This document shows, piece after piece, positions 4,881 to 38,232 of a DNA stretch of 64,000 bases (the first letter of the stretch is position 1; each line of letters begins with the position of its first letter). Made by a program: the position numbers and the translations under genes. Source of the stretch: Haliotis rufescens. Its lineage: Eukaryota. The stretch spans positions 7,626,001-7,690,000 of the forward strand of contig NW_025964372.1 in NCBI RefSeq assembly GCF_023055435.1. The letters are read 5' to 3'. The notes beneath the pieces were generated by a model that was not told the origin of the DNA, did not search any database, and worked only from the letters and a program-made list of their open reading frames with translations.

Positions 4881-4917
4881 CTCCCCATGAGTGCTTATGG
4901 TATGTGGTGTCTTCCAG

Positions 4918-5040: not shown

Positions 5041-5057
5041 GTAGGTCGAGAGCATAA

Positions 5058-12690: not shown

Positions 12691-13086
12691 TACATATAAG
12701 TCCAAGTGAAAACGTTCTTGCCTCCTATATTTATTTCGGCCTCAGTTCATTTACCATGGTGTCACTGGTTGTCGATCCCACGTAAAACACGTGCACATGG
12801 ACACGTTCAGTCGGCGTTTCAGAAGATAAGTCATCTCCACATGAAAAAATGGCGGCCTCACTTTGGTCTTAAGCATTATTGTAACGCCGAAAGCCACAGT
12901 ATGTGAACGTGTCACGGACGGAAGGTTGTATATAATTACACGACTGATGCAGTCAGCTGGGCAGTTATATTCCATAACATTACGCAAGCGCTCCAGGACC
13001 CGGTGAGATTAACTGAGTCAGATTTACGTTCCCAAACAAGCCGCAGCAACGTATATATAACACTGGTCAACCGAGACGGACAGTGG

Positions 13087-13150
13087 TATATAAAGCGCCC
13101 GTGATGGTCACAGCTCACAGGCAATCACAGCTGTCGTTTGCAAGGTAAGA
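13087..13150 (+). promoter_or_regulatory. TATA box, Inr and short non-coding first exon (alternative leader 1)
   Basis: TATATAAA at 13087, TCAC Inr 30 nt downstream (A13117), donor CAAG|GTAAGA at 13145. Confidence 0.55.
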
Positions 13151-14134: not shown

Positions 14135-14395
14135 GGTGAGTTGGGTTTCACGCCGTTTTGAACAGTATTCCAGTTATATCACGGCGTGTCAGCTTGATGT
14201 GGGAGGAAAGCCCGAGTGATGCAGGTCTCGGGCGTTTACCACTTTGGTGCAACCCACGAGCATGGGTATGGTGCTGTCAAACTTTGAAACATAATCGGGA
14301 CTTACCGGGATTCGAACCCACAATCCTGGATTTATGGCGTGCCCAAGGGACCGCGAATAGCTACACCTCGGACGGCTGGGCCACACGTGCCCCCG
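14135..14395 (-). mobile_element. tRNA-derived SINE family B (ACTC tail)
   Basis: Head GGGGCACGxxTGGCCCAG with B-box GGTTCGAATCCC; tail GCGGCGTxAAACCCAACTCAC. Confidence 0.8.
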
Positions 14396-15526
14396 CATCT
14401 GAGATACATGTACAAGACAGATTGTTAAACGCGTGTTGGTAACACCAGCGATATAATGATACATATTTTCGGCGAACGTTGTCGGGAACACATCTGCATA
14501 ATGAATAAAATTGTATGCAGAAAAGGAAAATATGTAAATACATACTACTCAAACTTAAAAAACCGATTCTTTCTGTGACTGTGACCTAACAGGACAGTTT
14601 TCCATGGTCATCTGTAAGAATCGGATGTTCTTTAAATCCTTGGTAAAACTATGCATAAAAATATAAAAAAGATCACCACTTAAAGAGACAACGATCTTTT
14701 ACACATGTACTTACCCTGATACACCAATCACTCGTATGAACCATTCATATACTTACATTCATTCATTACTGTACAGATAGGCTATAACATAAGATATATA
14801 ATATTGTTGATATATTTAGGCAAGGGTTTAATACTAAAGTCATACTGAATAGTCACATGATCAACTCACTGAATTCATCTAAAACAATAAATATTTACAC
14901 AAGTACAAACTTTCTATTTCAAATCAATCTAATCATTATAAAAATCATTATAAAAATCATTATAAAATAGAAACCATCCATTATACTATACATGATCAAC
15001 TTGCCTCAAATATCCATGAATATCTCACAAGTTCCCCAAATCCTCACATGAGTAGCCTCTACAAAAGAACTCGACAATTGTTACCGATTTGCTTCCTACA
15101 GATGTAAACTGGCAACTGACTTATGATGTATGAAATGTGAACATTGAAATGGAGCTGTGGCGGGCTTGGGCTATGGGAGAGACCTATACTGAGCAACGCG
15201 CTGCGGGAACGAGTGATGTGAGTGAGCATGCATTGTGACAATTAGTGGAGGAGAAAGTTTGCTTAATATTACAAGGCTATAGAATGAATGATTAAGGTAT
15301 AAAATGCAAAGTATAAAACGTAACTATACTTTACCTCATTCAGTGGGATGAGATTATTTTGCTCTGTTATGTATTGAAGGTACTTATCTAAATAAATGTA
15401 AGGTCATACAACCTTACCAACTACTTAGACGACTTGTAGAGGGTCTACCCGGAGAGTGGATGGCACGGGTATCAATCCCCGGCTGCATCATACCAAAATA
15501 CGTTAAGATGGTACTTGTTGTTACCC

Positions 15527-15790
15527 ACCCGTGAAGATCCGAGGTAGAATAGGTCTAAAACAACCCATGCTTGCTTAACAGGCGACCATGCTTGTCGTAA
15601 GAGGCGACTAATAACGGATCGGGTAGTCAGGCTCGATGACTTGGTTGATGCATGTCATCGAATTCCAATTGCGTGGATCGATGCTCATATTGTTAATCAC
15701 TAGATTGTCTGGTCGAGATTCGATTATTTACAGTCGGCCGTCATGTAGCTGAAATTTTGCCGAGTGCGGCGTTAAACAAACGAACAAAAC
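15527..15790 (+). mobile_element. SINE family A, full length
   Basis: acccgtgaagatcc...gcggcgttaaacaaacgaacaaaac. Confidence 0.85.
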
Positions 15791-16497
15791 ACTGTTAGTC
15801 GCCGTGCAGTGTTTGTTCACTACCCCCCGTATCATATTGACAATTACTTTGATGTTATAATTCCTGGCTAAGTTATCTGCCCTAGGCTGTCAATGTTGTC
15901 TACACAAAAGCAGGTGGTAATAGAATAGTATCAGTATTGCCTAACAAGTATTGATTTAATTAGTTTTAAATGACGGTCAAAACCTGGGCCAGCTGGTTAC
16001 AAAACATCTATTAAGAGAACAAAGGACAGTGCGGGCGTACCCGCCGACTTTATCTATGATTACGTAATTTACTGTTCGCGTTGTTGGCGATAAATAAACG
16101 AGAAATACTGGTCTGGCGACTTTTGAATTTTAGAATTTCCTTCAAGTTTAATTTGCGAAGAATATAGAAAAAGTACAATGAAACATATGCACTGTAATAC
16201 TACCATTATTGATATAATCTTCACTTTGAAGCTACATTATTTCCGAGAAACCCCGTTAATCTCAAAGAAAATGTACGAATGTGCATAAATGCAACATAAC
16301 TGAATTAAAGAGACAATTTCCGCGGTTATGTTGGACAAGCCACACTTTTCATGTTGTCATAGTCCTAAAACAACTAAATTCTAGAAGTATTGTCATATTT
16401 CAATGCGTTTTGTATTTGTATCAATATTTTATCTTGCAACCAGCGAAACCAAAACATTTCACAATCTTTGGATAATGTCAGTCACTTGTCCCGTCGC

Positions 16498-16815
16498 TGA
16501 CGTCACACACTGACTCGGGGTTATGTAACTGACCAGGGGTTATGTAACTGACCAGATGTAAAATGCTGTGCATGGCAATCATTTTAAATAGACAATGTCA
16601 GTTGGGCTGTAATATAAATTATGTGAAGTAATCGGTGCACCCGTATCGAATAATTGTTGTTCATACACTAGATATCTGCCAGTCAGCTAAGGTACCTAAT
16701 ATATTCCACAGGAGGACCAAGTCCCGGTATATGCGTACGGAGTCCAGTGGTTAACTTCACTCTGCCCCGAATACAGACTTAAAGGGGCTCAGCAGCCTTC
16801 TGTTTAAAGGTAAGA
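16498..16815 (+). promoter_or_regulatory. Promoter (CRE, 2 D-boxes, TATA, Inr) and non-coding first exon (leader 2)
   Basis: TGACGTCA at 16498; GTTATGTAAC at 16520 and 16539; TATATG at 16728; TCACT Inr with A16759 at +31; donor AAAG|GTAAGA at 16810. Confidence 0.6.
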
Positions 16816-16951
16816 TCAGGTTATATTCTGTCCTTGAACTTATTTTGTTTTTATACTATCTTTCAATATCCTGAACAATAAATTATATTTCATTTATTAT
16901 ACTACAAGGCTGCCGCGCGTGCGTGCTTGCGTGTGTGTGGTTACTTCACAT

Positions 16952-17224
16952 GGGGCACGGGTGACCCAGTCGTCTAATGCGCCGCGATTCGCTGTGCAGA
17001 GTTGCGTCCCTTGGGCGCGCCAGAAACCTATGATGATTGTGGGTTCGAATCCCTGTTCGCCCTGATTGTTTCTAGGTTTGTCAGCACCATACCCGTGCTC
17101 GTGGGTTTCACCGAAGTTGTAAACGACCTGTATCACTTCGGGTTTTCCTCTTTCATAAAGCTGACACGCCGTGATATAACTGGAATACTGTTAAAAGCGG
17201 CGTTGAACCCAACTCACTCACTCA
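16952..17224 (+). mobile_element. tRNA-derived SINE family B
   Basis: A/B boxes and an actcactcactc tail. Confidence 0.8.
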
Positions 17225-18653
17225 TTACTTTACATAGCGTAAGTAAGAGTACATGGTGGTACATACCCACGGGTAATCTCACGTAACTACTGTTTCACCG
17301 GGAATCTGGCTATACCCCGTCTATCATTTGGTTAAACATTTACAGCACTGAAATAATACATTTGTCTGTCAATACATCGGTCAAGCTGTGAATGTAAATG
17401 CTAAGTTGCGGTAATGAAATGCGTTAGTTACACTGGTGCTTCTTTTCAATTATTCTATGACACAATTCGCCTTTTATCCCCCGCCGCGATACAGGAACAG
17501 ATTTCGTCCGTCCTCCCACTTCTCAATGGGAACACATTTTCTCAAACTATTTGTTTGAGAACTATTTTAGTTAGAATTTACATTGATGTTACAGCAGCTA
17601 TCTCAAATGAGTTCTCAAACTGGTGCCGTAAATTATATTTATACAGTTACGACCCTTGATCCATCTTATTTTATGCATAGTGTCTGCAAGTGGCACCCGT
17701 TTTCTCAACTTACTGAAGTAACATGGCTGAACTTTCTGGGCTTACCTTAGAGATACTTATCAGGACAGTTTGACAATTGGTACCATAAATAACCTTCCGA
17801 CCCAGAGTTACGTCCCTTGTTACTTGTTTTTAGACCTGCAAGAAGACTCGTCCCCCTTTCGATGAATGTTATGTGCGAAAATGCGACAAACCAATCAGAA
17901 TGCGCGTATGATTTCAAGTTCTTCGTCAAAGAATCCCTCAGAAACAATTTTTTATTTAACATATGTCTTACATCTAAAAATATACCCAAGACAGTTAAAT
18001 GTAGTCAATCATACTGTATAATTCCGCATGTCCCGCTGTGCTTTAAATTGCATCTAAAATATATATAATATATGGGGAAATATATGTGAACCATTACGCA
18101 ACGAGTTGACAATTGTTTTAGGTATGCCCGTTTGCGCTAAGACGGAACCCGGTCGCAAAAATTGGCACGAGAGGGGCACAAGTCGCTATTCTGCTTGTCC
18201 CGTAATAACACGAGTTGGTCACGAATGAGATTTTGCGTCTCCTGTCTTCACCCCGTGGCGGGGGATAGTGATAACGCTGTTTTCATCTTGTAATTGTATC
18301 GCCACATGTATCCAAATAATCATGTTGAAACGTTCAAACCACTGATTTTAAGTTCTTCTCGCAGTATAGTTGTTCAATAACAATATTTATTTTCTTCAAA
18401 ATCTATTATAACTAATACACGTTCCACCGCACTGTCAACTGAATATCTGAACAGGGATGTGGTGTATTGTTTCAATATTATACGCCGATCGGTCGGGATA
18501 AAGACAATAACCCCCAGCCCAACTTCCCCCAATAGCACCCCCCCCCCCCCCCCACCCCCCATCCCCCAGACAATAACACCACCACCCCAACTACCCCAGA
18601 CAATAGCATCTCCCCCCCTACTCTTAATAATTGTCGGAATGTTCACCTTGCAG

Positions 18654-19465
18654 AGACATGACGGCGTTCTTCACTGCTGGCGCAAGACATGAATAGAGCG
18701 ATGACGTTGCTAATGGCGCCAAGGTCATGCCAGTGGAGCAGGCGACTTCCACGTAACCTATCACCTTGTAGCAAGCCTTAGGACACGCGATCTGGTGCTG
18801 CCGCCCTCGAAGTCAACGCCGCCCTCGAAGTCAACGCCGCCCTCGAAGTCAACGCCGGCCTCACCAATCGGCAAACCAGTTTATGCTTGCAGAATTGAGT
18901 CGTGTGTTGTCGTTATGCTTTGTCCAGACAGAACACTAGTTGAGTTACCTCCTTGCTCAGATGCGAGGTAAACCAGACTCTCTACACTTACATTGGCTGA
19001 GACCCTTATGGAACCTTATTGTCTGGAGACACCAGTACACATCAGTCATGAAATAACTGTCAGCTTGTTCTGTCAATGTGATGGTGATGTGGAGTTGTGC
19101 ACAGGACACAGAACTGTGATATTTCTAACAGTTTAATGAAGACTCAAAGGATTGGCTCACAGTTTATCAGCGAGCGGAAGCCCCTGCTTGACCGAGTGAC
19201 GTACATAGATCAGTCTGGGTTCCTGGCTACCTATCTATGGACGTGGACACTTCATCCCGGCAACTAACTACGCTGGCCAGATGTTATCAGTTGATGACGG
19301 ACCGAGGAATGTGGCTATTGGTCATCCCAAGGCAGCGGTCAGTATGTCCTGTCTGGACGGTTGTTGGGTAATAATTATCACCAGATTGACATACATCGGA
19401 AATATCTCTTGCCAGTGTGGTTAGAATACACCCAGTGTTCAATTAAAGGTATATATACTTAACTG
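18654..19465 (+). ncRNA. Candidate terminal exon of a lncRNA/smORF gene
   Basis: Acceptor ttcaccttgcag at 18642-18653 is the best + strand acceptor I found downstream of the two leader donors. Unique, GC-richer sequence; only short ATG ORFs (12 aa at 18658, 30 aa at 18689); ATTAAA at 19442. Confidence 0.3.
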
Positions 19466-20129
19466 AAAGTCCACAAGGCTAAACGATTGAAGCTGTGCTG
19501 TAGGTTTCTTGTATTGCGGACAGTACTAGCTGTCATCTAGTTGATAGTGTTCACGTGCAAGAAAACTATGTTGTGACGTTAAAAAGGCACTGAGAGTTTG
19601 GCACCGACCAATTGATATTCTAGGGATGGGGGTGATGGGCTTTTATCGAAAAAATATTGTCCCAGAAAATTCTTGAAAAAAATGAGTTTATCTTGCATAC
19701 TGAAAAAAGAAAATATCTACCACAAAAATACATTGTTGCAAGGTGTTTTCTGAGAAAAATATTCAGGCTCATAGTTTTAATTTACAAATATCTGGTTTTG
19801 CAACTGTAGCAGAAAAAATATGTAATCTGGAGACTCAGTCCAAGTCTTCTAAACCTCCAACCCCAATCCCCTGAATATCGGTCCCCCCAGTGTAGATTTG
19901 TGTGGAATATGGGTTACCAAGCAACGTGACTCTGTATGCGGGTGTATGATTTTAATCAACTATAGGAAAAATAATACGAGAAAGAATAGTTGTACCATGT
20001 TTAATATATACTATTTTAGGGAATATGTAAACAACCCCATGTGTTGGAATGAGAACGGAAATCTGTGTACAGAAATATAACGGACATGGTGTATCAATAG
20101 AAATTAAAGTCTTGTGTAGTAGTGACGTA

Positions 20130-20222
20130 GCCGTCTTTTGGGTGACGGTAGGCGTCTTTTGGCTGACGTTGGCGTCTTTTGGCTGACGTTGGCGTCTTTT
20201 GGCTGACGTTGGCGTCTTTTGG
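20130..20222 (+). repeat. 20-bp TGACG-containing minisatellite at the array edge
   Basis: ggcgtcttttggctgacgtt x~4. Confidence 0.85.
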
Positions 20223-23074
20223 GATGTTTGCTAATTGGTGGAATCAGCAGGGCAGGCAAGACTGGCTATGACCATACACAGAAAGCTGCTGAGTTTTAAT
20301 GGGTGGAGGCAGTGAGATGCACAACCATAATACAACAATACGCGTACAACACGTACGTCAATCATCATGATCATACAGAATGTATACACACGGAAACATA
20401 ATGACATTGTACGTTAATACAACAATACGCGTACAACACGTACGTCAATCATCATGATCATACAGAATGTATAAACACGGAAACATAATGACATTGATAT
20501 ACTGTAGATAAACAGACAACTATATAATACTAACGTAACATTAACTTGTAACTAACTGTAGCTTTGTCTCTTTCTCGTCTTTATTCAATGGAGTGACGTA
20601 GCGTGTCTTTTGGGTGACATAGACGTCCTTTGGGTGTTACTTCTTAATCGGGGGAATTAGCGGTAGTAGAGGTCACGACTGGCTATCACCTTGAAGAACA
20701 GAGAAGGCTGTTGAGTTGATGGCGTTTATTCGTTGGAGGTAGAGTGAAGTACATTTAATTATAATGACAAGATAATATGATACGTGTGCAACACGTGTTA
20801 AGAGGAAGAGTCACATTCATATAATCGTATACATATAATTATAATAATTCGATACGTGAACAACACGTATGAACGGTATGATCATGATAATATAATCTGC
20901 ATACAACAGATAATGACATGACTATATAGACGTACAATATATTGTATTTTAAGGTTTAACAGGTGGTTATGAAAAGGCATTTATTACGAGAAAATATGTC
21001 TGGTAGAAAACAGTACATGGGCTCCCGCTGTCACGCGTGGATATTTAACAACATACTGTTATAACAGACAATATAATATAATGTTGGCCGACTCAGTTTT
21101 CATTGCTACTAAGTTGCAGGCAAATCATTATGAGTGTCACTGAATGTAGGAACGTACTTGGTTATTGACATTGGTGCACATACTCATATTGGGATGTTGC
21201 CGTGCAACTAGTATGCTAATATACAAAAATATACGTTCGCGAAAGGCAGTATTGTCTGGATATTAAGTCAATGATAGTTTTCATAACGCTACGATATAGT
21301 CGAAATAGATCTTACCTACACCTAACGTATTACGATCGTAGCTGACAGGATGTTAACATTTAAGTCAATAGTGTCTTACCTTGAAGAACAGAAGGCTACT
21401 GAGTTGATGGCGTTTATTCGGTGGAAGCAGAGTGACATACATAAAATCATAATAACAATCCGATACGCGTGCAACACGTGTACACAGGCAGTCATATACA
21501 TATAATCATAACAATCCGATACGTGTACAACATGTATGGCCATGATAATGATGTCATCAATATATATATGTCTTACATTTGTTTGCATAACTATCTGACC
21601 AGCACCATGAGAAATGTTGAACCCGTCGGATATGCGTTATCGGGTTGACCCATGGCAGTCTAAATATAATGGAACGTGGTCGTTAGTAACAATCCTTTAT
21701 TTCACATTTTCCAATTCTTAATGTCATTTAACGTGATTAAATGTTTGTCCATTTCCCCATCTTAATAACAAACATGTTTCAGAATATAAAGATAGAGCCG
21801 ACTCATGTTTCATTGTTACTAAGTTGCAGACATTGTTCTGACTATCTCTGAATGTAGGAACCTGCTAGTTATTGACATTGGTACTCATACTAATATTGGG
21901 ATATTGCCGTGCGAATAGTAAGCTAATGTATTATGCATAAAATGATCGCAAGAGGAAGTTTTGTTAACGAGATATTTACCCATAACTTGCACCACGCTAC
22001 GATATAGTCCAAACATAATCTAAACCTAACGTACTATGATCGTAGATAGCAGAATAAGTTAATATCTAAAGTCAATAGATTCTTATCTTGAAAAACAAAA
22101 GGCTGCTGAGTTCTTGGCGTTTTCATCGGTGGAAGCAGAGTGCATTTGCTACCACCGACCGCCGTACCTGATATAATTAACCTTATGACCTATATAATAA
22201 CCTTGAACGGTTTGTTTGGTCTAGGCTGATTATAATACCTAGAATTTGTTGTCTGGGAATAAGCTTGGGACAGCACTCCTTAAAACAACCTAGAGAAGCA
22301 TCTGTTAGTGGCCAGTCTTTATTTGGTGGATCTCATCAGTGAGGAACCCGTTTTGGCTTGTGTGGGCGTGGTCCCGTTTTGCCTTGTGTGGGCGTGGTCC
22401 CCTTTTGCCTTGTGTGGGCGTGGTCCCGTTTTGCCTTGTCTGGGCGTGGTCCCCTTTTGCCTTGTCTGGGCCTGGTCCCGGTCCCGTTTTGCCTTGTGTG
22501 GGCGTGGGCCCGTTTTGCCTTGTCTGGGCGTGGGCCCGTTTGCTACGTCACAATGACCAAGATAGTGGGGGAATTAACTTGGTAGAGCTGATTACTCGTC
22601 TAACAACTTAAAACAGAGAGAAGGCTGTCGAGTCTCTTTAAGTCTTTATTCGTGGCAGAGCTAAAATACATAACACAGCTTTGACCTAGATCAAGTTATT
22701 GAAACCGTCCGTTTTAAGGGACAGTTTATACCTAGAATTGTTACGGGGAATTAACTCCGGGATCTCCATGCCTTCCAAAACAGAGGTTCTCAGGCGAAAT
22801 GCAGGAATTCTTCATTATATATGACGTCAAAAGGGCAACAACATACATTCAACAGCATCTCAGTATTCTTTTTCATAGTTAAGACATCACAATGAGAATT
22901 AACTAGTAAAGCATTAAGATATGAAATCAATTGTTAAGAAATGATAATGAGTTACATAAGAGTGGACTCGTTAAGATACCATGTTATAAACGCCATGGTC
23001 TCTTACAACATTGTGCTCAGTGAATGTCAATCATGTTCATAGCGTACATCATTCATAAATTTGGACATAAGGAT

Positions 23075-23547
23075 GATTTATGGTCAATTGAGCTCTTGAT
23101 AACTTTTCAAACAATTGTCTATTGGCTCTCCTATACTCCCCCCACGTGTCTGTAGCGATTATGATGTCATCGATGTATGCGTAAAAGTGTTTCTCGTCAC
23201 ATATGACTCCATTTATCAAACGCTGAAATTTTGCTGGCGCATTTTTCAGATCAAATGGCATCACATTATATTCGAACAGTCCTTCAGGTGTACAAAATGC
23301 ACTTACTTGCCTTGCTCTAGATGTTAATGGAATGCCCCAGTAACCTTTTCACAAATCAAACTTTGACACATATGTAGCATGCCCTATTCGATCAATGCAA
23401 TCGTCTATCGTAGGTAAAGGGTATGAATCTGATTTTGAAATGGCATTGACCTTTTTAAAGTTTGTACACAATCGTACACCTCCATCTGGTTTAGGTACTA
23501 GGATGCATGGAGAACTCCAAGGACTATTGCTAGGCTGTATGATGTTA
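23075..23547 (-). pseudogene. Ty3/Gypsy reverse transcriptase fragment, copy 1
   Basis: IIQPSNSPWSSPCILVPKPDGGVRLCTNFKKVN...YPLPTIDDCID...KFDL*KGYWGIPL...MPFxLKNAPAKFQR...YIDD. Confidence 0.92.
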
Positions 23548-25418
23548 TATACCGTAGATGAACAGACAACTATATAATACTATCGTAACATTAACTTGTA
23601 ACTAACTGTAACTTTGTCTCTTTCTCGTCTTTATTCAATGGAGTGACGTAGTGTGTCTTTTGGGTGACGTAGACGTCCTTTGGGTGTTACTTCTTAATCG
23701 GGGGAATTAGCGGTAGTAGAGGTCACGACTGGCTATCACCTTGAAGAACAGAGAAGGCTGTTGAGTTGATGGCGTTTATTCGTTGGAGGTAGAGTGAAGT
23801 ACATTTAATTATAATGACAAGATAATATGATACGTGTGCAACACGTGTTCAGAGGTAGTCACATTCATATAATCGTATACATATAATTATAATAATTCGA
23901 TACGTGTACACCACGTATGAACGGTATGATCATAATAATATAATCGGCATACAACAGGTAATGACATGACTATATAGATGTACAATATATTGTATTTTAA
24001 GGTTTAACAGATGGTTATGAAAAGGCATTTATTACGAGAAAATATGTCTGGTAGAAAACAGTACATGGACTCCCGCTGTCATGCGTGGATATTTAACAAC
24101 ATACTGTTATAACAGACAATATAATATAATGTTGGCCGACTCAGTTTTCATTGCTACTAAGTTGCAGGCAAATCATTATGAGTGTCACTGAATGTAGGAA
24201 CGTACTTGGTTATTGACATTGGTGCACATACTCATATTGGGATGTTGCCGTGCAACTAGTATGCTAATATACAAAAATATACGTTCGCGAAAGGCAGTAT
24301 TGTCTGGATATTAAGTCAATGATAGTTTTCATAACGCTACGATATAGTCGAAATAGATCTAACCTACACCTAACGTATTACGATCGTAGCTGACAGAATG
24401 TTAACATTTAAGTCAATAGTGTCTTACCTTGAAGAACAGAAGGCTGCTGAGTTGATGGCGTTTATTCGGTGGAAGCAGAGTGACATACATATAATCATAA
24501 TAACAATCCGATACGCGTGCAACACGTGTACACAGGCAGTCATATACATATAATCATAACAATCCGATACGTGTACAACATGCATGGTCAGGATAATGAT
24601 GTCATCAATATCTATATATATATGTCTTACATTTGTTTGCATAACTCTCTGACCAGCACCATGAGAAATGTTGAACCCGTCGGATATGCGTTATCGGGTT
24701 GACCCATGGCAGTCTAAATATAATGGAACGTGGTCGTTAGTAATAATCCTTTATTTCACATTTTCCAATTCTTAATGTCATTTAACTTAATTAAATGTTT
24801 GTCCATTTCCCCATCTTAATAACAAACATGTTTCAGAATATAAAGATAGAGCCGACTCATGTTTCATTGTTACTAAGTTGCAGACATTGTTCTGACTTGC
24901 AGACATTGTTCTGACTATCTCTGAATGTAGGAACCTGCTAGTTATTGACATTGGTACTCATACTAATATTGGGATATCGCGTGCGAATAGTAAGCTAATG
25001 TATTATGCATAAAATGATCGCAAGAGGAAGTTTTGTTAACGAGATATTTACCCATAACTTGCACCACGCTACGATATAGTCCAAACATAATCTAAACCTA
25101 ACGTACTATGATCGTAGATAGCAGAATAAGTTAATATCTAAAGTCAATAGATTCTTATCTTGAAAAACAAAAGGCTGCTGGGTTCTTGGCGTTTTCATCG
25201 GTGGAAGCAGAGTGCATTTGCTACCACCGACCGCCGTACCTGATATAATTAACCTTATGACCTATATAATAACCTTGAACGGTTTGTTTGGTCTAGGCTG
25301 ATTATAATACCTAGAATATGTTGTCTGGGAATAAGCTTGGGACAGCACTCCTTAAAACAACCTAGAGAAGCATCTGTTAGTGGCCAGTCTTTATTTGGTG
25401 GATCTCATCAGTGAGGAA

Positions 25419-25920
25419 CCCGTTTTGGCTTGCGTGGGCGTGGTCCCGTTTTGCCTTGTGTGGGCGTGGTCCCCTTTTGCCTTGTGTGGGCGTGGTCCCC
25501 TTTTGCCTTGTGTGGGCGTGGTCCCGTTTTGCCTTGTCTGGGACTGGTCCCGTTTTGCCTTGTGTGGGCCTGGTCCCCTTTTGCCTTGTCTGGGCGTGGT
25601 CCCGTTTTGCCTTGTCTGGGCCTGGTCCCGTTTTGCCTTGTCTGGGCCTGGTCCCCTTTTGCCTTGTCTGGGCGTGGTCCCGTTTTGCCTTGTCTGGTCC
25701 CGGTCCCGTTTTGCCTTGTCTGGGCCTGGTCCCGTTTTGCCTTGTCTGGGCCTGGTCCCGTTTTGCCTTGTCTGGGCCTGGTCCCGTTTTGCCTTGTCTG
25801 GGCCTGGTCCCGTTTTGCCTTGTGTGGGCGTGGGCCCGTTTTGCCTTGTCTGGGCGTGGTCCCGTTTTGCCTTGTCTGGGCCTGGTCCCGTTTTGCCTTG
25901 TGTGGGCGTGGGCCCGTTTG
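25419..25920 (+). repeat. 26-bp GC-box VNTR (largest block; others at 22347, 28781, 31856, 35008, 35302)
   Basis: Unit cccgttttgccttgtstgggcstggt; about 7/19/8/11/4/3 copies per block. Confidence 0.95.
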
Positions 25921-26451
25921 CTACGTCACAATGACCAAGATAGTGGGGGAATTAACTTGGTAGAGCTGATTACTCGTCTAACAACTTAAAACAGAGAGAA
26001 GGCTGTCGAGTCTCTTTAAGTCTTTATTCGTGGCAGAGCTAAAATACATAACACAGCTTTGACCTAGATCAAGTTATTGAAACCGTCCGTTTTAAGGGAC
26101 AGTTTATACCTAGAATTGTTACGGGGAATTAACTCCGGTATCTCCATGCCTTCCAAAACAGAGGTTCTCAGGCGAAATGCAGGAATTCTTCATTATATAT
26201 GACGTCAAAAGGGCAACAACATACATTCAACAGCATCTCAGTATTCTTTTTCATAGTTAAGACATCACAATGAGAATTAACTAGTAAAGCATTAAGATAT
26301 GAAATCAATTGTTAAGAAATGATAATGAGTTACATAAGAGTGGACTCGTTAAGATACCATGTTATAAACGCCATGGTCTCTTACAACATTGTGCTCAGTG
26401 AATGTCAATCATCTCATAGCGTACATCATTCATAAATTTGGACATAAGGAT

Positions 26452-26926
26452 GATTTATGGTCAATTGAGCTCTTGATAACTTTTCAAACAATTGTCTATT
26501 GGCTCTCCTATACTCCTCCCACGTGTCTGTAGCGATTATGATGTCATCGATGTATGCGTAAAAGTGTTTCTCGTCACATATGACTCCATTTATCAAACGC
26601 TGAAATTTTGCTGGCGCATTTTTCAGACAAAAAATGGCATCACATTATATTCGAACAGTCCTTCAGGTGTACAAAATGCACTTACTTGCCTTGCTCTAGA
26701 TGTTAATGGAATGCCCCAGTAACCTTTTCACAAATCAAACTTTGACACATATGTAGCATGCCCTATTCGATCAATGCAATCGTCTATCGTAGGTAAAGGG
26801 TATGAATCTGATTTTGAAATGGCATTGACCTTTTTAAAGTTTGTACACAATCGTACACCTCCATCTGGTTTAGGTACTAGGATGCATGGAGAACTCCAAG
26901 GACTATTGCTAGGCTGTATGATGTTA
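26452..26926 (-). pseudogene. Gypsy RT fragment, copy 2 (extra frameshift)
   Basis: As copy 1, plus an A-run expansion at ~26629-26634. Confidence 0.9.
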
Positions 26927-29528
26927 TATACCGTAGATGAACAGACAACTATATAATACTATCGTAACATTAACTTATAACTAACTGTAGCTTTGTCTCT
27001 TTCTCGTCTTTATTCAATGGAGTGACGTAGCGTGTCTTTACGTGACGTAGACGTCCTTTGGGTGTTACTTCTTAATCGGGGGAATTAGCGGTAGTAGAGG
27101 TCACGACTGGCTATCACCTTGAAGAACAGAGAAGGCTGTTGAGTTGATGGCGTTTATTCGTTGGAGGTAGAGTGAAGTACATTTAATTATAATGTCAAGA
27201 TAATATGATACGTGTGCAACACGTGTTAAGAGGAAGAGTCACATTCATATAATCGTATACATATAATTATAATAATTCGATACGTGAACAACACGTATGA
27301 ACGGTATGATCATAATAATATAATCGGCATACAACAGATAATGACATGACTGTATAGATGTACAATATATTGTATTTTAAGGTTTAACAGATGGTTATGA
27401 AAAGGCATTTATTACGAGAAAATATGTCTGGTAGAAAACAGTACATGGACTCCCGCTGTCATGCGTGGATATTTAACAACATACTGTTATAACAGACAAT
27501 ATAATATAATGTTGGCCGACTCAGTTTTCATTGCTACTAAGTTGCAGGCAAATCATTATGAGTGTCACTGAATGTAGGAACGTACTTGGTTATTGACATT
27601 GGTGCACATACTCATATTGGGATGTTGCCGTGCAACTAGTATGCTAATATACAAAAATATACGTTCGCGAAAGGCAATATTGTCTGGATATTAAGTCAAT
27701 GATAGTTTTCATAACGCTACGATATAGTCGAAATAGATCTAACCTACACCTAACGTATTACGATCGTAGCTGACAGAATGTTAACATTTAAGTCAATAGT
27801 GTCTTACCTTGAAGAACAGAAGGCTGCTGAGTTGATGGCGTTTATTCGGTGGAAGCAGAGTGACATACATATAATCATAATAACAATCCGATACGCGTGC
27901 AACACGTGTACACAGGCAGTCATATACATATAATCATAACAATCCGATACGTGTACAACATGCATGGTCAGGATAATGATGTCATCGATATCTATATATA
28001 TATGTCTTACATTTGTTTGCATAACTATCTGACCAGCACCATGAGAAATGTTGAACCCGTCGGATATGCGTTATCGGGTTGACCCATGGCAGTCTAAATA
28101 TAATGGAACGTGGTCGTTAGTAATATTCCTTTATTTCACATTTTCCAATTCTTAATGTCATTTAACGTGATTAAATGTTTGTCCATTGCCCCATCTTAAT
28201 AACAAACATGTTTCAGAATATAAAGATAGAGCCGACTCATGTTTCATTGTTACTAAGTTGCAGACATTGTTCTGACTATCTCTGAATGTAGGAACCTGCT
28301 AGTTATTGACATTGGTACTCATACTAATATTGGGATATTGCCGTGCGAATAGTAAGCTAATGTATTAAGCATAAAATGATCGCAAGAGGAAGTTTTGTTA
28401 ACGAGATATTTACCCATAACTTGCACCACGCTACGATGTAGTCCAAACATAATCTAAACCTAACGTACTATGATCGTAGATAGCAGAATAAGTTAATATC
28501 TAAAGTCAATAGATTCTTATCTTGAAAAACAAAAGGCTGCTGAGTTCTTGGCGTTTTCATCGGTGGAAGCAGAGTGCATTTGCTACCACCGACCGCCGTA
28601 CCTGATATAATTAACCTTATGACCTATATAATAACCTTGAACGGTTTGTTTGGTCTAGGCTGATTATAATACCTAGAATATGTTGTCTGGGAATAAGCTT
28701 GGGACAGCACTCCTTAAAACAACCTAGAGAAGCATCTGTTAGTGGCCAGTCTTTATTTGGTGGATCTCATCAGTGAGGAACCCGTTTTGGCTTGTGTGGG
28801 CGTGGTACCCTTTTGCCTTGTGTGGGCGTGGTCCCGTTTTGCCTTGTGTGGGCCTGGTCCCGTTTTGCCTTGTGTGGGCGTGGTCCCCTTTTGCCTTGTG
28901 TGGGCGTGGGCCCGTTTTGCCTTGTCTGGGCCTGGTCCCGTTTTGCCTTGTCTGGGCCTGGTCTCGTTTTGCCTTGTCTGGGCGTGGGCCCGTTTGCTAC
29001 GTCACAATGACCAAGATAGTGGGGGAATTAACTTGGTAGAGCTGATTACTCGTCTAACAACTTAAAACAGAGAGAAGGCTGTCGAGTCTCTTTAAGTCTT
29101 TATTCGTGGCAGAGCTAAAATACATAACACAGCTTTGACCTAGATCAAGTTATTGAAACCGTCCGTTTTAAGGGACAGTTTATACCTAGAATTGTTACGG
29201 GGAATTAACTCCGGGATCTCCATGCCTTCCAAAACAGAGGTTCTCAGGCGAAATGCAGGAATTCTTCATTATATATGACGTCAAAAGGGCAACAACATAC
29301 ATTCAACAGCATCTCAGTATTCTTTTTCATAGTTAAGACATCACAATGAGAATTAACTAGTAAAGCATTAAGATATGAAATCAATTGTTAAGAAATGATA
29401 ATGAGTTACATAAGAGTGGACTCGTTAAGATACCATGTTATAAACGCCATGGTCTCTTACAACATTGTGCTCAGTGAATGTCAATCATGTTCATAGCGTA
29501 CATCATTCATAAATTTGGACATAAGGAT

Positions 29529-30001
29529 GATTTATGGTCAATTGAGCTCTTGATAACTTTTCAAACAATTGTCTATTGGCTCTCCTATACTCCTCCCACG
29601 TGTCTGTAGCGATTATGATGTCATCGATGTATGCGTAAAAGTGTTTCTCGTCACATATGACTCCATTTATCAAACGCTGAAATTTTGCTGGCGCATTTTT
29701 CAGACCAAATGGCATCACATTATATTCGAACAGTCCTTCAGGTGTACAAAATGCACTTACTTGCCTTGCTCTAGATGTTAATGGAATGCCCCAGTAACCT
29801 TTTCACAAATCAAACTTTGACACATATGTAGCATGCCCTATTCGATCAATGCAATCGTCTATCGTAGGTAAAGGGTATGAATCTGATTTTGAAATGGCAT
29901 TGACCTTTTCAAAGTTTGTACACAATCGTACACCTCCATCTGGTTTAGGTACTAGGATGCATGGAGAACTCCAAGGACTATTGCTAGGCTGTATGATGTT
30001 A
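29529..30001 (-). pseudogene. Gypsy RT fragment, copy 3
   Basis: MPFGLKNAP...YIDD, same internal TGA. Confidence 0.9.
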
Positions 30002-32687
30002 TATACCGTAGATGAACAGACAACTATATAATACTATCGTAACATTAACTTGTAACTAACTGTAGCTTTGTCTCTTTCTCGTCTTTATTCAATGGAGTGA
30101 CGTAGCGTGTCTTTACGTGACGTAGACGTCCTTTGGGTGTTACTTCTTAATCGGGGGAATTAGCGGTAGTAGAGGTCACGACTGGCTATCACCTTGAAGA
30201 ACAGAGAAGGCTGTTGAGTTGATGGCGTTTATTCGTTGGAGGTAGAGTGAAGTACATTTAATTATAATGACAAGATAATATGATACGTGTGCAACACGTG
30301 TTAAGAGGAAGAGTCACATTCATATAATCGTATACATATAATTATAATAATTCGATACGTGAACAACACGTATGAACGGTATGATCATAATAATATAATC
30401 GGCATACAACAGATAATGACATGACTGTATAGATGTACAATATATTGTATTTTAAGGTTTAACAGATGGTTATGAAAAGGCATTTATTACGAGAAAATAT
30501 GTCTGGTAGAAAACAGTACATGGACTCCCGCTGTCATGCGTGGATATTTAACAACATACTGTTATAACAGACAATATAATATAATGTTGGCCGACTCAGT
30601 TTTCATTGCTACTAAGTTGCAGGCAAATCATTATGAGTGTCACTGAATGTAGGAACGTACTTGGTTATTGACATTGGTGCACATACTCATATTGGGATGT
30701 TGCCGTGCAACTAGTATGCTAATATACAAAAATATACGTTCGCGAAAGGCAGTATTGTCTGGATATTAAGTCAATGATAGTTTTCATAACGCTACGATAT
30801 AGTCGAAATAGATCTAACCTACACCTAACGTATTACGATCGTAGCTGACAGAATGTTAACATTTAAGTCAATAGTGTCTTACCTTGAAGAACAGAAGGCT
30901 GCTGAGTTGATGGCGTTTATTCGGTGGAAGCAGAGTGACATACATATAATCATAATAACAATCCGATACGCGTGCAACACGTGTACACAGGCAGTCATAT
31001 ACATATAATCATAACAATCCGATACGTGTACAACATGCATGGTCAGGATAATGATGTCATCGATATCTATATATATATGTCTTACATTTGTTTGCATAAC
31101 TATCTGACCAGCACCATGAGAAATGTTGAACCTGTCGGATATGCGTTATCGGGTTGACCCATGGCAGTCTAAATATAATGGAACGTGGTCGTTAGTAATA
31201 ATCCTTTATTTCACATTTTCCAATTCTTAATGTCATTTAACGTGATTAAATGTTTGTCCATTGCCCCATCTTAATAACAAACATGTTTCAGAATATAAAG
31301 ATAGAGCCGACTCATGTTTCATTGTTACTAAGTTGCAGACATTGTTCTGACTATCTCTGAATGTAGGAACCTGCTAGTTATTGACATTGGTACTCATACT
31401 AATATTGGGATATTGCCGTGCGAATAGTAAGCTAATGTATTATGCATAAAATGATCGCAAGAGGAAGTTTTGTTAACGAGATATTTACCCATAACTTGCA
31501 CCACGCTACGATGTAGTCCAAACATAATCTAAACCTAACGTACTATGATCGTAGATAGCAGAATAAGTTAATATCTAAAGTCAATAGATTCTTATCTTGA
31601 AAAACAAAAGGCTGCTGAGTTCTTGGCGTTTTCATCGGTGGAAGCAGAGTGCATTTGCTACCACCGACCGCCGTACCTGATATAATTAACCTTATGACCT
31701 ATATAATAACCTTGAACGGTTTGTTTGGTCTAGGCTGATTATAATACCTAGAATATGTTGTCTGGGAATAAGCTTGGGACAGCACTCCTTAAAACAACCT
31801 AGAGAAGCATCTGTTAGTGGCCAGTCTTTATTTGGTGGATCTCATCAGTGAGGAACCCGTTTTGGCTTGTGTGGGCGTGGTACCCTTTTGCCTTGTGTGG
31901 GCGTGGTCCCCTTTTGCCTTGTGTGGGCGTGGTCCCGTTTTGCCTTGTGTGGGCCTGGTCCCGTTTTGCCTTGTCTGGGCCTGGTCCCGTTTTGCCTTGT
32001 GTGGGCGTGGGCCCGTTTTGCCTTGTCTGGGCCTGGTCCCGGTCCCGTTTTGCCTTGTGTGGGCGTGGTCCCCTTTTGCCTTGTCTGGGCGTGGTCCCGT
32101 TTTGCCTTGTCTGGGCGTGGGCCCGTTTTGCCTTGTCTGGGCGTGGGCCCGTTTGCTACGTCACAATGACCAAGATAGTGGGGGAATTAACTTGGTAGAG
32201 CTGATTACTCGTCTAACAACTTAAAACAGAGAGAAGGCTGTCGAGTCTCTTTAAGTCTTTATTCGTGGCAGAGCTAAAATACATAACACAGCTTTGACCT
32301 AGATCAAGTTATTGAAACCGTCCGTTTTAAGGGACAGTTTATACCTAGAATTGTTACGGGGAATTAACTCCGGGATCTCCATGCCTTCCAAAACAGAGGT
32401 TCTCAGGCGAAATGCAGGAATTCTTCATTATATATGACGTCAAAAGGGCAACAACATACATTCAACAGCATCTCAGTATTCTTTTTCATAGTTAAGACAT
32501 CACAATGAGAATTAACTAGTAAAGCATTAAGATATGAAATCAATTGTTAAGAAATGATAATGAGTTACATAAGAGTGGACTCGTTAACATACCATGTTAT
32601 AAACGCCATGGTCTCTTACAACATTGTGCTCAGTGAATGTCAATCATGTTCATAGCGTACATCATTCATAAATTTGGACATAAGGAT

Positions 32688-33160
32688 GATTTATGGTCAA
32701 TTGAGCTCTTGATAACTTTTCAAACAATTGTCTATTGGCTCTCCTATACTCCCCCCACGTGTCTGTAGCAATTATGATGTCATCGATGTATGCGTAAAAG
32801 TGTTTCTCGTCACATATGACTCCATTTATCAAACGCTGAAATTTTGCTGGCGCATTTTTCAGACCAAATGGCATCACATAATATTCGAATAGTCCTTCAG
32901 GTGTACAAAATGCACTTACTTGCCCTGCTCTAGATGTTAATGGAATGTCCCAGTAACCTTTTCACAAATCAAACTTTGACACATATGTAGCATGCCCTAT
33001 TCGATCAATGCAATCGTCTATCGTAGGTAAAGGGTATGAATCTGATTTTGAAATGGCATTGACCTTTTTAAAGTTTGTACACAATCGTACACCTCCATCT
33101 GGTTTAGGTACTAGGATGCATGGAGAACTCCAAGGACTATTGCTAGGCTGTATGATGTTA
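32688..33160 (-). pseudogene. Gypsy RT fragment, copy 4
   Basis: MPFGLKNAP...YIDD, same internal TGA. Confidence 0.9.
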
Positions 33161-35455
33161 TATACCGTAGATAAACAGACAACTATATAATACTATCGTA
33201 ACATTAACTTGTAACTAACTGTAACTTTGTCTCTTTCTCGTCTTTATTCAATGGAGTGACGTAGCGTGTCTTTTGGGTGACGTAGACGTCCTTTGGGTGT
33301 TACTTCTTAATCGGGGGAATTAGCGGTAGTAGAGGTCACGACTGGCTATCACCTTGAAGAACAGAGAAGGCTGTTGAGTTGATGGCGTTTATTCGTTGGA
33401 GGTAGAGTGAAGTACATTTAATTATAATGACAAGATAATATGATACGTGTGCAACACGTGTTCAGAGGTAGTCACATTCATATAATCGTATACATATAAT
33501 TATAATAATTCGATACGTGTACACCACGTATGAACGGTATGATCATAATAATATAATCGGCATACAACAGGTAATGACATGACTATATAGATGTACAATA
33601 TATTGTATTTTAAGGTTTAACAGATGGTTATGAAAAGGCATTTATTACGAGAAAATATGTCTGGTAGAAAACAGTACATGGGCTCCCGCTGTCACGCGTG
33701 GATATTTAACAACATACTGTTATAACAGACAATATAATATAATGTTGGCCGACTCAGTTTTCATTGCTACTAAGTTGCAGGCAAACCATTATGAGTGTCA
33801 CTGAATGTAGGAACGTACTTGGTTATTGACATTGGTGCACATACTCATATTGGGATGTTGCCGTGCAACTAGTATGCTAATATACAAAAATATACGTTCG
33901 CGAAAGGCAGTATTGTCTGGATATTAAGTCAATGATAGTTTTCATAACGCTACGATATAGTCGAAATAGATCTAACCTACACCTAATGTATTACGATCGT
34001 AGCGACAGAATGTTAACATTTAAGTCAATAGTGTCTTACCTTGAAGAACAGAAGGCTGCTGAGTTGATGGCGTTTATTCGGTGGAAGCAGAGTGACATAC
34101 ATATAATCATAATAACAATCCGATACGCGTGCAACACGTGTACACAGGCAGTCATATACATATAATCATAACAATCCGATACGTGTACAACATGCATGGT
34201 CAGGATAATGAGGTCATCAATATATATATGTCTTACATTTGTTTGCGAAACTCTCTGACCAGCACCATGAGAAATGTTGAACCCGTCGGATATGCGTTAT
34301 CGGGTTGACCCATGGCAGTCTAAATATAATGGAACGTGGTCGTTAGTAATATTCCTTTATTTCACATTTTCCAATTCTTAATGTCATTTAACGTGATTAA
34401 ATGTTTGTCCATTTCCCCATCTTAATAACAAACATGTTTCAGAATATAAAGATAGAGCCGACTCATGTTTCATTGTTACTAAGTTGCAGTCATTGTTCTG
34501 ACTATCTCTGAATGTAGGAACCTGCTAGTTATTGACATTGGTACTCATACTAATATTGGGATATTGCCGTGCGAATAGTAAGCTAATGTATTAAGCATAA
34601 AATGATGGAAAGAGGACGTTTTGTTAACGAGATATTTATCCATAATTTGCACCACGCTACGATATAGTCCAAACAGAATCTAAACCTAACGTATTATGAT
34701 CGTAGATAGCAGAATAAGTTAATATCTAAAGTCAAATAAATTCTTATCTTGATAAACAAAAGGCTGCTGATTTCTTGGCGTTTTCATCGGTGGAAGCAGA
34801 GTGCATTTGCTACCACCGACCGCCGTACCTGATATAATTAACCTTATGACCTATATAATAACCTTGAACGGTTTGTTTGGTCTTGGCTGATTATAATACC
34901 TAGAATTTGTTGTCGGGGAATTAGCTTTGGACAGCACTCCTTAAAACAACCTAGAGAAGCATTTGTTTGTGGCCAGTCTTTATTTGGTGGATCTCATCAG
35001 TGAGGAACCCGTTTTGGCTTGTGTGGGCGTGGTCCCGTTTTGCCTTGTGTGGGCGTGGTCCCGTTTTGGCTTGTGTGGGCGTGGTCCCGTTTTGCCTAGT
35101 TTGGGCGTAGTCCCGTTTGCTACGTCACAATGACCAAGATAATTCCCCCACTAACTTGGTAGAGCTGATTACTCGTCTAACACCTTAAAACAGAGAGAAG
35201 GCTGTCGAGTCTCTTTAAGTCTTTTTTCGTGGCAGAGCTAAAATACATAACACAGCTTTGACCTAGATCAAGTTACTGTCGGTATCTCATCAGTGAGGAA
35301 TCCGTTTTGGCTTGTGTGGGCGTGGTCCCGTTTTGCCTTGTGTGGGCGTGGTCCCGTTTTGCCTTCTCTGGGCGTGGTCCCGTTTTGCCATGTATCACGG
35401 TGACCAAAATCGCCTCACTAGTCTTAGACCCGCATGTCAGGCAGTGAATAGCAGT

Positions 35456-35976
35456 TGTCAGGATAGAAAAATAATACAAACAAGTGGCTTGTTATCTAAA
35501 ACTCAGTTTATTTACATAGGCAATCAAACTAATTAAACATGAGATACCAATAACAACAAAGATACTGACTCAAGTAGGGGTTACAACAACAGGTATGTAG
35601 GACCTGATAGATAAACACCTGATTATGGAGCTAATTGACAAACTCACAACTAAATAGGCTGTGCTAACCAATCTCACCGGACGCTAGACAAGACTATGGA
35701 TATGCTAACGTCTACGTCTGACAGGAATTCACACCTCGAGACAATGAGCAGTGACCAATTAACATAAGCTCTTGATTGGACCAATTAGCGGGGACTCAAA
35801 AGGACAGGGGATAATTACCTCTAAGGGATAATAGGTGGATTTAAATGAAACTACAACGCTTTAAGCGTAAATAAGGATTTTACCCAAAATATCTTCCCAA
35901 AGTACTGTAAGATACAAATAGCTAGTTCTTTGAACTTACAAGTACAAATAACCCTATAATAAAATAGAACGCTACA
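35456..35976 (-). mobile_element. Possible solo LTR
   Basis: Minus strand begins TGTAG and ends TGACA, with AATAAA ~60 nt from the end. No TSD seen. Confidence 0.3.
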
Positions 35977-36199
35977 GAAGGCTATCGAGTGTCTTTAAGT
36001 CTTTATTCGTGGCAGTTAAATGCATAACACAACTTTGGCCTAGATCAAATTACTGTCGGGCCTCGATATGGCGAATTAACTGGGAGCTCGCCTTGAAACA
36101 AGAGAGGAGAGAGCTATGAGGCCCAAGGTCAATCAAGTGTTTAACATATAAATGTATTCCAAAATAATGACAAACAACGGTAATAATGATAATGATATC

Positions 36200-36760
36200 C
36201 TAAAATGTTCAAGGGGGTTCAAATCTTGGCTCATTGCTGGCCAGGGTAGAGTCGTTATTGCATTGGCCCTCATGTAATCCATGACTGCATGCGAACGATG
36301 AGGCCTGAAAGTGCTGAAACGACGGTTGGGCAACCACAGCTGTTTCAGACGAGTACTTGTTAAAAAGGGTTCTCGGCGTATGAGATGAAGAATGTCCCTT
36401 TCTTCGCGATGTGTTGTCACAGGTGGTCTTCCGGATCTGGGACGCTCCCGTTCATAACCAGTCTGAGCATATTTCTCGACTAAACGGCTTACGACAGTGT
36501 GATACCCCAAATTCCGACCAATGGCATTACAAGACACTCTTGTGTTATGCATGCCGATTATTTGCCATCTTGTGGTGTTTGTTGTCCACATAATCGCCTT
36601 CGTGCCGTGTTTGATAATCGCCTTCGTGCCATGGTCACACAATGTCATTGAATAACTGTTGAAAACCGAGCTAAAGAAAGCAATTTTGACGTTTGGATAT
36701 ACTCCTTTTAGAGATACTCGAGGGTAGCATGCTGCACGGGCAATACCATGCATGGCACAT
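36200..36760 (-). mobile_element. Internally deleted Tc1/mariner transposase
   Basis: HTH region WQIIGM...RPRSGRPPVTT is fused directly to the C-terminal PH...LPWPAMSQDLNPLEH (WPxxSPDLNPIE motif). Most of the catalytic core is missing. Confidence 0.85.
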
Positions 36761-36830
36761 AGTGATCTTCTTTAGGTAAATATGACGTCAGTAGTATATA
36801 GTGCACTTATGTCCGTTTTTTAATCGCAGC

Positions 36831-36985
36831 CCTCTCATTGGCTGATTTCTGCCCGCAGGGTCCGCCTCCCCCATTCCCCACACCAGAGTAATGACGTCAT
36901 ATATTTTTGTCCTCTCATTGGCTGATTTCTACCCGCAGGGTCCCCCTCCCCCAACCCAAACCCAGAGTAATGACGTCATATATTT
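36831..36985. promoter_or_regulatory. 80-bp tandem duplicate with CCAAT box, GC box and CRE
   Basis: Each unit has cattggctga (CCAAT on -), ccgcctcccc and atgacgtcat. A third TGACGTCA lies at 36783. Confidence 0.6.
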
Positions 36986-37303
36986 CTGCACGTATGTACC
37001 CATTTTTATTTTTTTATTTTTTTTGTCGTACCTAAACCGCGATATTACAGCAATGTTACTAAAACTGTAAACATTCCCCCCTATTTGTAATGAATTAGAC
37101 AATAACTCAAACAGATTGTAAGCTACATAGTTTAATGCATTGGTATAAACATTGGTGAAAACATTTATCAGAGCCGGAAATACTTCTGCCTTTTGTGGAG
37201 CTGAAACAGCTCCGAATGCATATTGACGGTTCTTCCTGGTAGTGTCTCCCCCTCATCTGTGGGAAGCTGTGGGCTGTTGTGGTTTAATTTGTGGGGTGTG
37301 TGA

Positions 37304-37741
37304 TTACACGCGTCTACAGTATATATATTTAAAACTATTGAATTCAGCATACATAAGCGAATTATTCAAACCGAATGAATCAAACTTTTCTTTGGGTATC
37401 CTTATTCGGTACGTAAAATGTCTTCTATGTTCTCGTAAGATTTTGTCTTCATATTTCCATTTGTACAGTTTAATACCGCACATATAGCACTGAACGCAAT
37501 CGTTCATTCCCGTGTAGAATAACCCGCACCTGGCCAGCTCGAGAGGAGTCTGCTTAATTTGAATAGGAAATGTGTAGTAGGTATCTAAACGATTTTTTAA
37601 ATACCTGTAGGAAGAATGATCGGGAATATCCATATTATCCGATCCCAGTGTCCATCAACTCCGACAACTATCCGCATCCAAACATTTACATCCGTAGTCG
37701 ACACTAGCGTCGCAATCCGCGATTAAATCTAGAGAATCCAT
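37304..37741 (-). pseudogene. Intronless single-BIR (IAP-like) gene, probably disabled
   Basis: RLDTYYTFP...LARCGLFYTGMNDCVQCYMCGIKLYKWKYEDKILREH is a BIR domain, but the fourth Zn ligand Cys is absent. The upstream in-frame ATG at 37741 (acaaaATG) is cut off by a TGA; ORF 37633-37304 is open. Confidence 0.75.
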
Positions 37742-38232
37742 TTTGTAATTTTAGAACTTCTTTTTATTACTATTGTATATGTCAACGACGGGGAAATTAG
37801 CTCAGATTGAAGACGAAGAATACGTTGAGTCCAAATTTCTTTAGTCGGCAATAAAACAAAATACAATTACTGATAGAAATATGTCGAGCGGAGATTCCAA
37901 CTCAACAAGTACAAGTGAAGCCCAGCAAGCAGGCGTATCCTACTCGTGGCTGTACATACAGGTGCTGTCGGAATACCAGACTAACAGGAAAGATGTAAAC
38001 ATATATATACACTATTGGACAACAATAGACAGACAAAGAGACAATGGCGTTGCCCTGGACATGGGACTTATGGATGTGATTACAGACACGGCCCCGGGGA
38101 AAATGAATTAAGGCTATCTTTACTCCGGATAGGATGCATGACACCCTCCTTTCTGAACACCACAACTGCTGCTTTTTTCTTCTGTCTCGCAATGCACAGG
38201 ATAGCCTGAAGATTCCTGCTTCATTTCAAAGA

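Follow-up and report, generated by a model that had tools for sequence, protein, structure and literature searches.

PIWI-interacting RNA (piRNA) clusters of the unistrand, flamenco type in Drosophila were described as having a discrete promoter and a spliced precursor (PMC10643416), and processing at cluster 20A, also in Drosophila, was reported to begin with cuts guided by piRNAs close to its 5' end (PMC4561483). The promoters of transposon-silencing clusters were described as largely elusive (PMC11615739). Here we analyzed a 64,000-nucleotide stretch of Haliotis rufescens DNA (assembly GCF_023055435.1, contig NW_025964372.1, positions 7,626,001 to 7,690,000; hereafter the window, in whose coordinates positions are given), in which a plus-strand relic of a Ty3/Gypsy long terminal repeat (LTR) lies to the left of a 15-kb array of minus-strand LTR pieces, nearly all from the repeated and unique 5' regions (R and U5) of the LTR. 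In our reading, to which we give a probability of roughly 0.7, this tandem R-U5 stack yields plus-strand RNAs of 27-30 nt that are likely PIWI-bound guides against Gypsy/errantivirus-like elements, and the relic is likely the promoter and first exon of their precursor.

The locus resembled flamenco-type clusters in using one strand, in holding antisense Gypsy/errantivirus fragments and in having env-carrying targets, and by analogy of strand, size and content it may work like a small cluster of that type. It differed in that its known part spans ~16-20 kb against hundreds of kb, in that it holds tandemly amplified R-U5 leaders where flamenco was described with whole or internal fragments, and in that its promoter is likely the sense LTR of a targeted family (PMC10643416). 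With cluster 20A it would share unistrand output and slicing-initiated processing near the 5' end, the latter being proposed here; the triggers described for 20A act in trans from other loci, whereas exon 1 would be a built-in bait (PMC4561483). Mollusc piRNA clusters were similarly described as Gypsy-rich, with young elements, and as showing ping-pong in gonad and soma, while the text of that report mentions neither tandem arrays nor promoters (PMC6128900). Chromodomain-bearing errantiviruses were reported in Cnidaria, Mollusca and Annelida; our source family B resembles them, by domains alone, in its gag, its protease, reverse transcriptase, RNase H, integrase and chromodomain order (PR-RT-RH-IN-chromo) and its Baculo_F env, whereas splicing is not mentioned in the main text of that report (PMC13524379). 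The maize repeats CRM1TR and CRM4TR are likewise tandem arrays made from Gypsy LTR and untranslated region (UTR) parts, each described as deriving from one subfamily, in contrast to the six-family mosaic found here (PMC3648361). Among the papers listed in the literature searches, none described an LTR-promoted piRNA cluster or such an R-U5 leader array.

Small RNAs and structure of the array

Three small-RNA runs from one study (X21, X22 and X23) were aligned to positions 16200-23600, which include one unit of the array, and depth therefore sums all five units. X22 placed 87,356 of its 18.27 million reads on this interval (4,780 per million), 86,392 of them at 99+% identity, and the 618 reads that X21 placed there (29 per million) peaked at the same three places. 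Over 14 array bins the plus strand held 99.8% of the depth, or 98.9% without the top bin. Loose match ends showed absorbed adapter letters, indicating, once this overlap is discounted, inserts of ~27-30 nt. The array is a one-strand, piRNA-type source of dense 27-30-nt plus-strand RNAs antisense to transposon pieces. The initial annotation had offered a small-RNA source locus as one of its possibilities, and this was supported, as reads aligned and two of the three top species occur exactly in the array only; its proposal that minus-strand output converges on a module at 16.7 kb was contradicted, the small RNAs being plus-strand and antisense to the array's modules.

The start was U at six of the seven distinct start sites among those listed, and two sense species carried A at base 10 (10A). 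The most abundant species (start 20673) has 15 genomic sites, five of them within the array, and matches a young family-B LTR except at bases 12 and 25 (A, B, D, E and F being labels given to the families in this analysis). The second (22574), at 537 per million, was array-specific and has its sole mismatches to a young family-A LTR at bases 26 and 29, pairing up to base 25; the third (21369) has seven mismatches to a young family-B LTR. On the minus strand, 135 reads share a start at 22550; this species has A at base 10 and a variant common to young family-A LTRs and unit 5, which fits ping-pong. Allele counts in the reads followed units 2-5: 23157A, carried by one of four units, appeared in 49 of 264 reads, and 23140T, carried by two of four, in 19 of 31. 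Differences among the units, together with unit-specific alleles in the reads, led us to reject an assembly artefact. The array's small RNAs are likely PIWI-bound guides that would silence several related Gypsy/errantivirus-like families.

The array comprises 4.7 copies of a mosaic unit in which all oriented pieces lie on the minus strand (Table 1), and its units differ by 0.3-2.5% substitution over their first 1.8 kb. The mosaic contains R-U5 pieces of five LTR families plus a reverse-transcriptase fragment, six element families in all, and retains at most remnants of 9-25 bp of the unique 3' region (U3). A local-alignment scan with the 16.7-kb module recovered, in all five units, the four minus-strand copies per unit that had been noted before; they scored 43-66 against 23-35 for 10 shuffled queries. 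The earlier count of about 20 held for the module query but was an underestimate, since family queries returned the same 20 copies and one at 36018, and family-specific queries added five family-E and four family-F copies, bringing the minus-strand R copies to 32. Among the outliers named earlier, the copy near 35980 stood (36015-35974, minus strand, score 52); that near 20280 (20327-20275) scored 32, within the null range, yet corresponds to family-B LTR sequence from the 3' part (E 9e-7); and that near 36090 belongs to family D, being its R copy at 36140-36091.

As had been described earlier, the 22081-type copy (22141) retains TATA remnants with a dead donor, ATAAGA, and the 21374-type copy (21433) retains GTAAGA and has lost its TATA. 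The source LTRs carry R twice, as R1 and R2, on either side of a putative GT intron of ~700 bp, which explains why some copies have a TATA without a donor and others a donor without a TATA. The 22141 type is an R1, the copies at 20745 and 22661 are of R2 type, and 21433 is a hybrid with an R2-type upstream and an R1-type downstream flank. The piece at 20594-21433 is 81-91% identical to dispersed copies, most matches beginning at 21435; the older B-like piece, with AT instead of the donor GT in its R1, reaches 75-77% to its best copies, and its junction with the following piece falls within R. By eye, the LTR 3' end is retained exactly or nearly in five pieces (two B, E, D and F), and the array pieces look like aborted minus-strand complementary DNAs (cDNAs), whose synthesis begins at the end of U5. 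Nested insertions followed by one-sided deletion may be an alternative origin; a stack of U3 pieces, as expected under serial insertion, was sought right of the array with families A, B, D, E and F, and no U3 match was returned. The mosaic was not found elsewhere in the genome, junctions 23076, 22172 and 21435 being unspanned in the best 40 each of 269, 148 and 192 matches. A whole element or a terminal-repeat retrotransposon in miniature was rejected for the array, which holds no gag, env or LTR 5' end and only a reverse-transcriptase fragment.

Table 1. Features of the relic, the array (pieces given for unit 1) and the main small-RNA species
Feature	Position	Strand	Remarks
Family-A Gypsy LTR relic, 5' part	16356-17474	+	aligns to L023:634-1628 from TGTCATAG start
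R copy 1, predicted first exon	16759-16809	+	+1 inferred from LTR family; donor GTAAGA at 16810
Small-RNA species in exon 1	16774-16802	+	C start, A at base 10; 17 reads in X22; 1 genomic match
Dispersed repeat inside relic intron, SINE-like (short interspersed nuclear element; label our own reading)	16949-17235		self-BLAST; very high contig depth
Family-B-like LTR 3' part	20123-20496	-	intron end as 87-bp tandem, degenerate R2, U5 to CTACGTCA end
Tandem array, last unit partial	20497-35283	-	unit starts 20497, 23547, 26925, 30000, 33160; plus-strand small-RNA source
97-bp piece, no assignment	20497-20593		found only in the five units
Family-B LTR, R1 +1 to exact LTR end	20594-21433	-	intron, R2 20745-20688, U5
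Top small-RNA species	20673-20699	+	70,042 reads, U start, ~27 nt; antisense to family-B R/U5 junction
Third small-RNA species	21369-21397	+	1,894 reads, U start; exact in array only (5 sites); spans R/intron donor junction
Older B-like LTR piece	21434-22166	-	25 bp of U3 with TATA remnant, R1 (22141), intron
Family-E R copy and U5, intron-less form	22172-22348	-	
Family-A R copy and U5	22347-22661	-	expanded 26-bp U5 motif; 92% to young family-A LTRs over 22660-22507
Second small-RNA species	22574-22602	+	9,812 reads, U start, ~29 nt; exact in array only (4 sites)
Family-D U5 tail	22662-22697	-	by eye against L085, L086
Family-F LTR 3' end	22698-23081	-	R2 at 22808-22771; between units only
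Broken reverse-transcriptase fragment	23076-23548	-	tblastn; 96% to L087; between units only
Dispersed repeat	35393-35965		84-97% to other copies
Family-A-type R copy (36018), preceded by family-D R2 and U5 (36197-36024)	35974-36197	-	

Right of the array, two minus-strand frames lie antisense to the likely precursor: a 211-aa frame at 36133-36771 with a weak HTH_32 match below the cut-off, similar to a Tc1/mariner transposase relic, and a BIR (inhibitor of apoptosis) domain frame at 37304-37654 (E 5e-17). Between them, 36831-36988 contains a 79-bp sequence twice, promoter-like in its CCAAT-like and TGACGTCA motifs, and a 330-bp piece occurs in diverged direct copies (75%) at 37786-38117 and 40489-40809. 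Elsewhere, a carnitine/choline acyltransferase gene whose start lies left of the window has its last four exons with Pfam matches at 4913-7078 (plus strand), and ordinary minisatellites of 26-62-bp units lie at 591-1588 and 55350-63237.

Source families of the leaders

The initial annotation had taken the plus-strand module at 16728-16815 for the leader of a single-copy host gene. The module itself was present as noted, with a TATA-like sequence at 16728, a predicted +1 at 16759 and GTAAGA at 16810-16815; the gene was not. In a search of the 1.33-Gb genome, all 40 scored candidates (the best 40 of 100) matched the module, and no open reading frame (ORF) of at least 110 aa occurs from 14.6 to 25.3 kb, leaving no protein gene after the module. 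A host gene downstream of 16815 was rejected accordingly, the region consisting of repeats and single-copy non-coding DNA, as was a spliced-leader RNA array, the module being an LTR R. Many matches formed direct pairs, spaced 6.9-8.3 kb, with gag and PR-RT-RH-IN frames between them; seven of eight paired regions examined had terminal repeats of 0.6-1.6 kb, 99.0-99.9% identical, around gag and pol. Pfam found Retrotrans_gag, protease, reverse transcriptase, RNase H and integrase in Gypsy order, and families A and B have the direct terminal repeats around gag and PR-RT-RH-IN pol that define Ty3/Gypsy elements. The LTRs have TG...CA termini (TGTCATAG...CTACGTCA in loci L023 and L054), and a TGG-starting sequence comes after the LTR in L054 and L058. 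Within them the module begins ~30 bases after the TATA box, has AATAAA near +12 and ends in AAG|GT. It is the R region, with cap site, AATAAA and splice donor, of dispersed Ty3/Gypsy LTRs. The annotation had itself considered a dispersed transposon part silent on both strands; the first half of that alternative was correct and the second was not.

Family B encodes gag, PR-RT-RH-IN-chromo and an 813-aa Baculo_F env (E 2.8e-19), F-type env-like homology was also found in family F (L058, L089), and the family-A elements examined had no F-type env frame. By gene content, the source families appear errantivirus-like, with an F-type env in some. Four family-A LTRs at ~7.67-kb spacing form a tandem element chain (G000:C614:175054-198191; L009-L012, L024), and another family-A LTR is nested in the same orientation within the intron of a family-A LTR (L092:2619-4911). 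Family B includes ~3.6-kb non-autonomous derivatives without coding frames, with LTR pairs 98.6-99.8% identical (L055, L056), and inverted and rearranged LTRs (L090:1415-6062). The array's reverse-transcriptase fragment originates from a Gypsy-type element with integrase upstream of reverse transcriptase (L087:4175-6686), an order we take to be Gmr1-like.

Origin of the precursor

The relic contains U3, R copy 1 and part of the LTR intron, without R copy 2 and U5, and in a scan of relic and array with family queries it alone had the LTR 5'-end motif. Its poly(A) signal is degenerate (AATACA), a variant shared with L019. RNA polymerase II would start at 16759 and read through this signal, and the precursor would be spliced from 16810 to an acceptor before ~18780 and then cross the array. 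At 97% likeness, X22 depth was zero at 16300-16737 and 16884-18781 around the exon-1 species, and from 18782 low plus-strand depth, with two short gaps, increased towards the array; X23 repeated this pattern of exon 1, gap and downstream reads with nine reads. AATAAA occurs twice on the plus strand of 20120-36200 against 36 times on the minus strand, and is absent from the plus strand from 16878 to 34734, while the flanks hold 34 plus-strand copies in 44 kb. The R exon of the relic is transcribed in the sense direction, as its genome-unique 10A species demonstrates. Exon-1 reads, an empty putative intron and the lack of plus-strand AATAAA are consistent with a spliced precursor that runs from the relic through the array, making the relic likely its promoter and first exon. 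The guides would cut the leader present at the ends of element RNAs. As exon 1 is a sense copy of the array's antisense content, array-type piRNAs would also slice it, feeding the precursor into processing; the 16774 species, with its C start and A at base 10, fits such a slicing product.

Several observations weigh against this reading. The recorded species of the small-RNA runs may not be that of the genome, the top species (80% of aligned reads) also matches 10 sites outside the array, and unit-1 alleles were absent or rare in reads (0/91, 0/51 and 7/178), indicating either a difference between the assembly and the animals sampled or little use of unit 1. Read support for the promoter came to 17 reads at one start site plus ~1 read in X23. 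No read or contig of the small-RNA and contig runs joined exon 1 to downstream sequence, and four contig runs guessed to be RNA (X1, X9, X7 and X13) lacked exon 1 coverage; runs marked in this way were not used as expression evidence. The array's best guide for the cut at 16774 would mismatch exon 1 at bases 10, 17, 25 and 26 and was not among the start sites listed.

The same piRNA source could instead be fed by read-through from the acyltransferase gene or by a start between 17.5 and 20 kb, with the relic as a bystander target, which we consider unlikely. The last Pfam-matching exon of that gene ends 9.3 kb upstream on the plus strand, read-through piRNA precursors were reported in mammals (PMC11615739), and small-RNA depth reports processing, not transcription start. 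However, 12 plus-strand AATAAA lie within 1-16300, 16300-16737 gave no reads, and the relic retains TATA-like, initiator-like and donor motifs, with a unique read showing sense exon transcription.

Less probable still is a neutral LTR-derived satellite, built by nested relics and unequal exchange and incidentally transcribed, whose small RNAs have no selected role. Maize repeats made of LTR/UTR parts offer a parallel (PMC3648361), the one-way orientation might exist only because AATAAA in a sense R would end the transcript, and homology-driven joining could give pieces a common orientation. Against this stand the high output of one array-specific species, the U starts and 10A partner, the close pairing of array RNAs with young elements and the antisense orientation of all six element families, including the two fillers at the unit junction. 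An amplified minus-strand promoter battery converging on a host gene and acting through antisense or double-stranded RNA or factor titration, as initially annotated, is very improbable: the modules are indeed of promoter-proximal origin and were amplified together with TGACGT and GC-box-like motifs, but those motifs lie in U5, the pieces lack U3 beyond the short remnants, no gene is there, and minus-strand small RNA makes up just 0.2% of array depth.

Doubled R and a proposed LTR intron

In families A and B the LTR layout was U3-TATA-R1-GTAAG-~700 bp-R2-U5, and by eye families D, E and F had the same doubled R, with GCAAGT as the donor in F. We compared R1 and R2 at 26 family-A and 24 family-B loci, which were taken from top matches and are not independent of ancestry. 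Copies from different LTRs differed at a mean of 3.1 (A) and 3.3 (B) positions and the two copies of one LTR at 1.9 (A, n=16) and 1.3 (B, n=12), with permutation p values of 5e-5 and 4e-4, respectively. Between the families, 17 module positions separate A from B. Identity of the flanks fell to 0.3-0.5 immediately beyond R. The four bases preceding R1 were CTTC in 35 of 35 cases, and the base preceding R2 was G in 8 of 17 family-A copies and in all four family-D and -E copies seen, and non-C in 6 of 20 family-B copies (two of these rows align poorly). Intron-less LTRs (U3-R-U5) were found at five of the 26 family-A loci, one of them doubtful.

In human immunodeficiency virus 1 (HIV-1), a G immediately before the start site was reported to arise by cap copying at minus-strand transfer (PMC12172438). 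The G before R2 resembles this mark of the transfer point, with the difference that here it precedes the second R copy and never the first. The concerted evolution of the R copies and the G before R2 suggest that the LTR intron is rebuilt at each replication. Element transcription would start at R1, the leader would be spliced from the R1 end to the AG at the R2 end, and the 3' end of the element RNA would be cut within R2 of the 3' LTR. Strong-stop cDNA would then land on R2, rewriting it from R1 every cycle, and the intron would be rebuilt out of the RNA 3' end. On these sequence comparisons, the intron probably survives reverse transcription in this manner. Conversion between R1 and R2 at the DNA level would also explain their concerted change but accounts less well for the sharp R edges and the G before R2, while a transcription start at R2 may explain the G and leaves the concerted change unexplained. 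Solo LTRs were reported to start spliced transcripts, a doubled R being absent from that description (PMC4558846), and no paper listed in the literature searches described a natural doubled-R LTR intron.

These elements can be combined into a self-priming cluster, in which the LTR relic would supply both promoter and sense bait exon, the guides would come from R-U5 pieces of five sister families, captured as minus-strand cDNA and multiplied five-fold, and the targets would carry an R2-rewritten LTR intron. We propose this fuller account tentatively, at somewhat below even odds. If the doubled R works as suggested, it would be a natural way for a retroelement to retain an intron through reverse transcription, with its sequence signature visible in five diverged families of an animal genome. 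The locus would offer a compact, deletable example of piRNA cluster assembly, in which the short leader common to the RNAs of a family was collected and then amplified, and a promoter derived from an LTR would be active in the very cells where the elements to be silenced are active.

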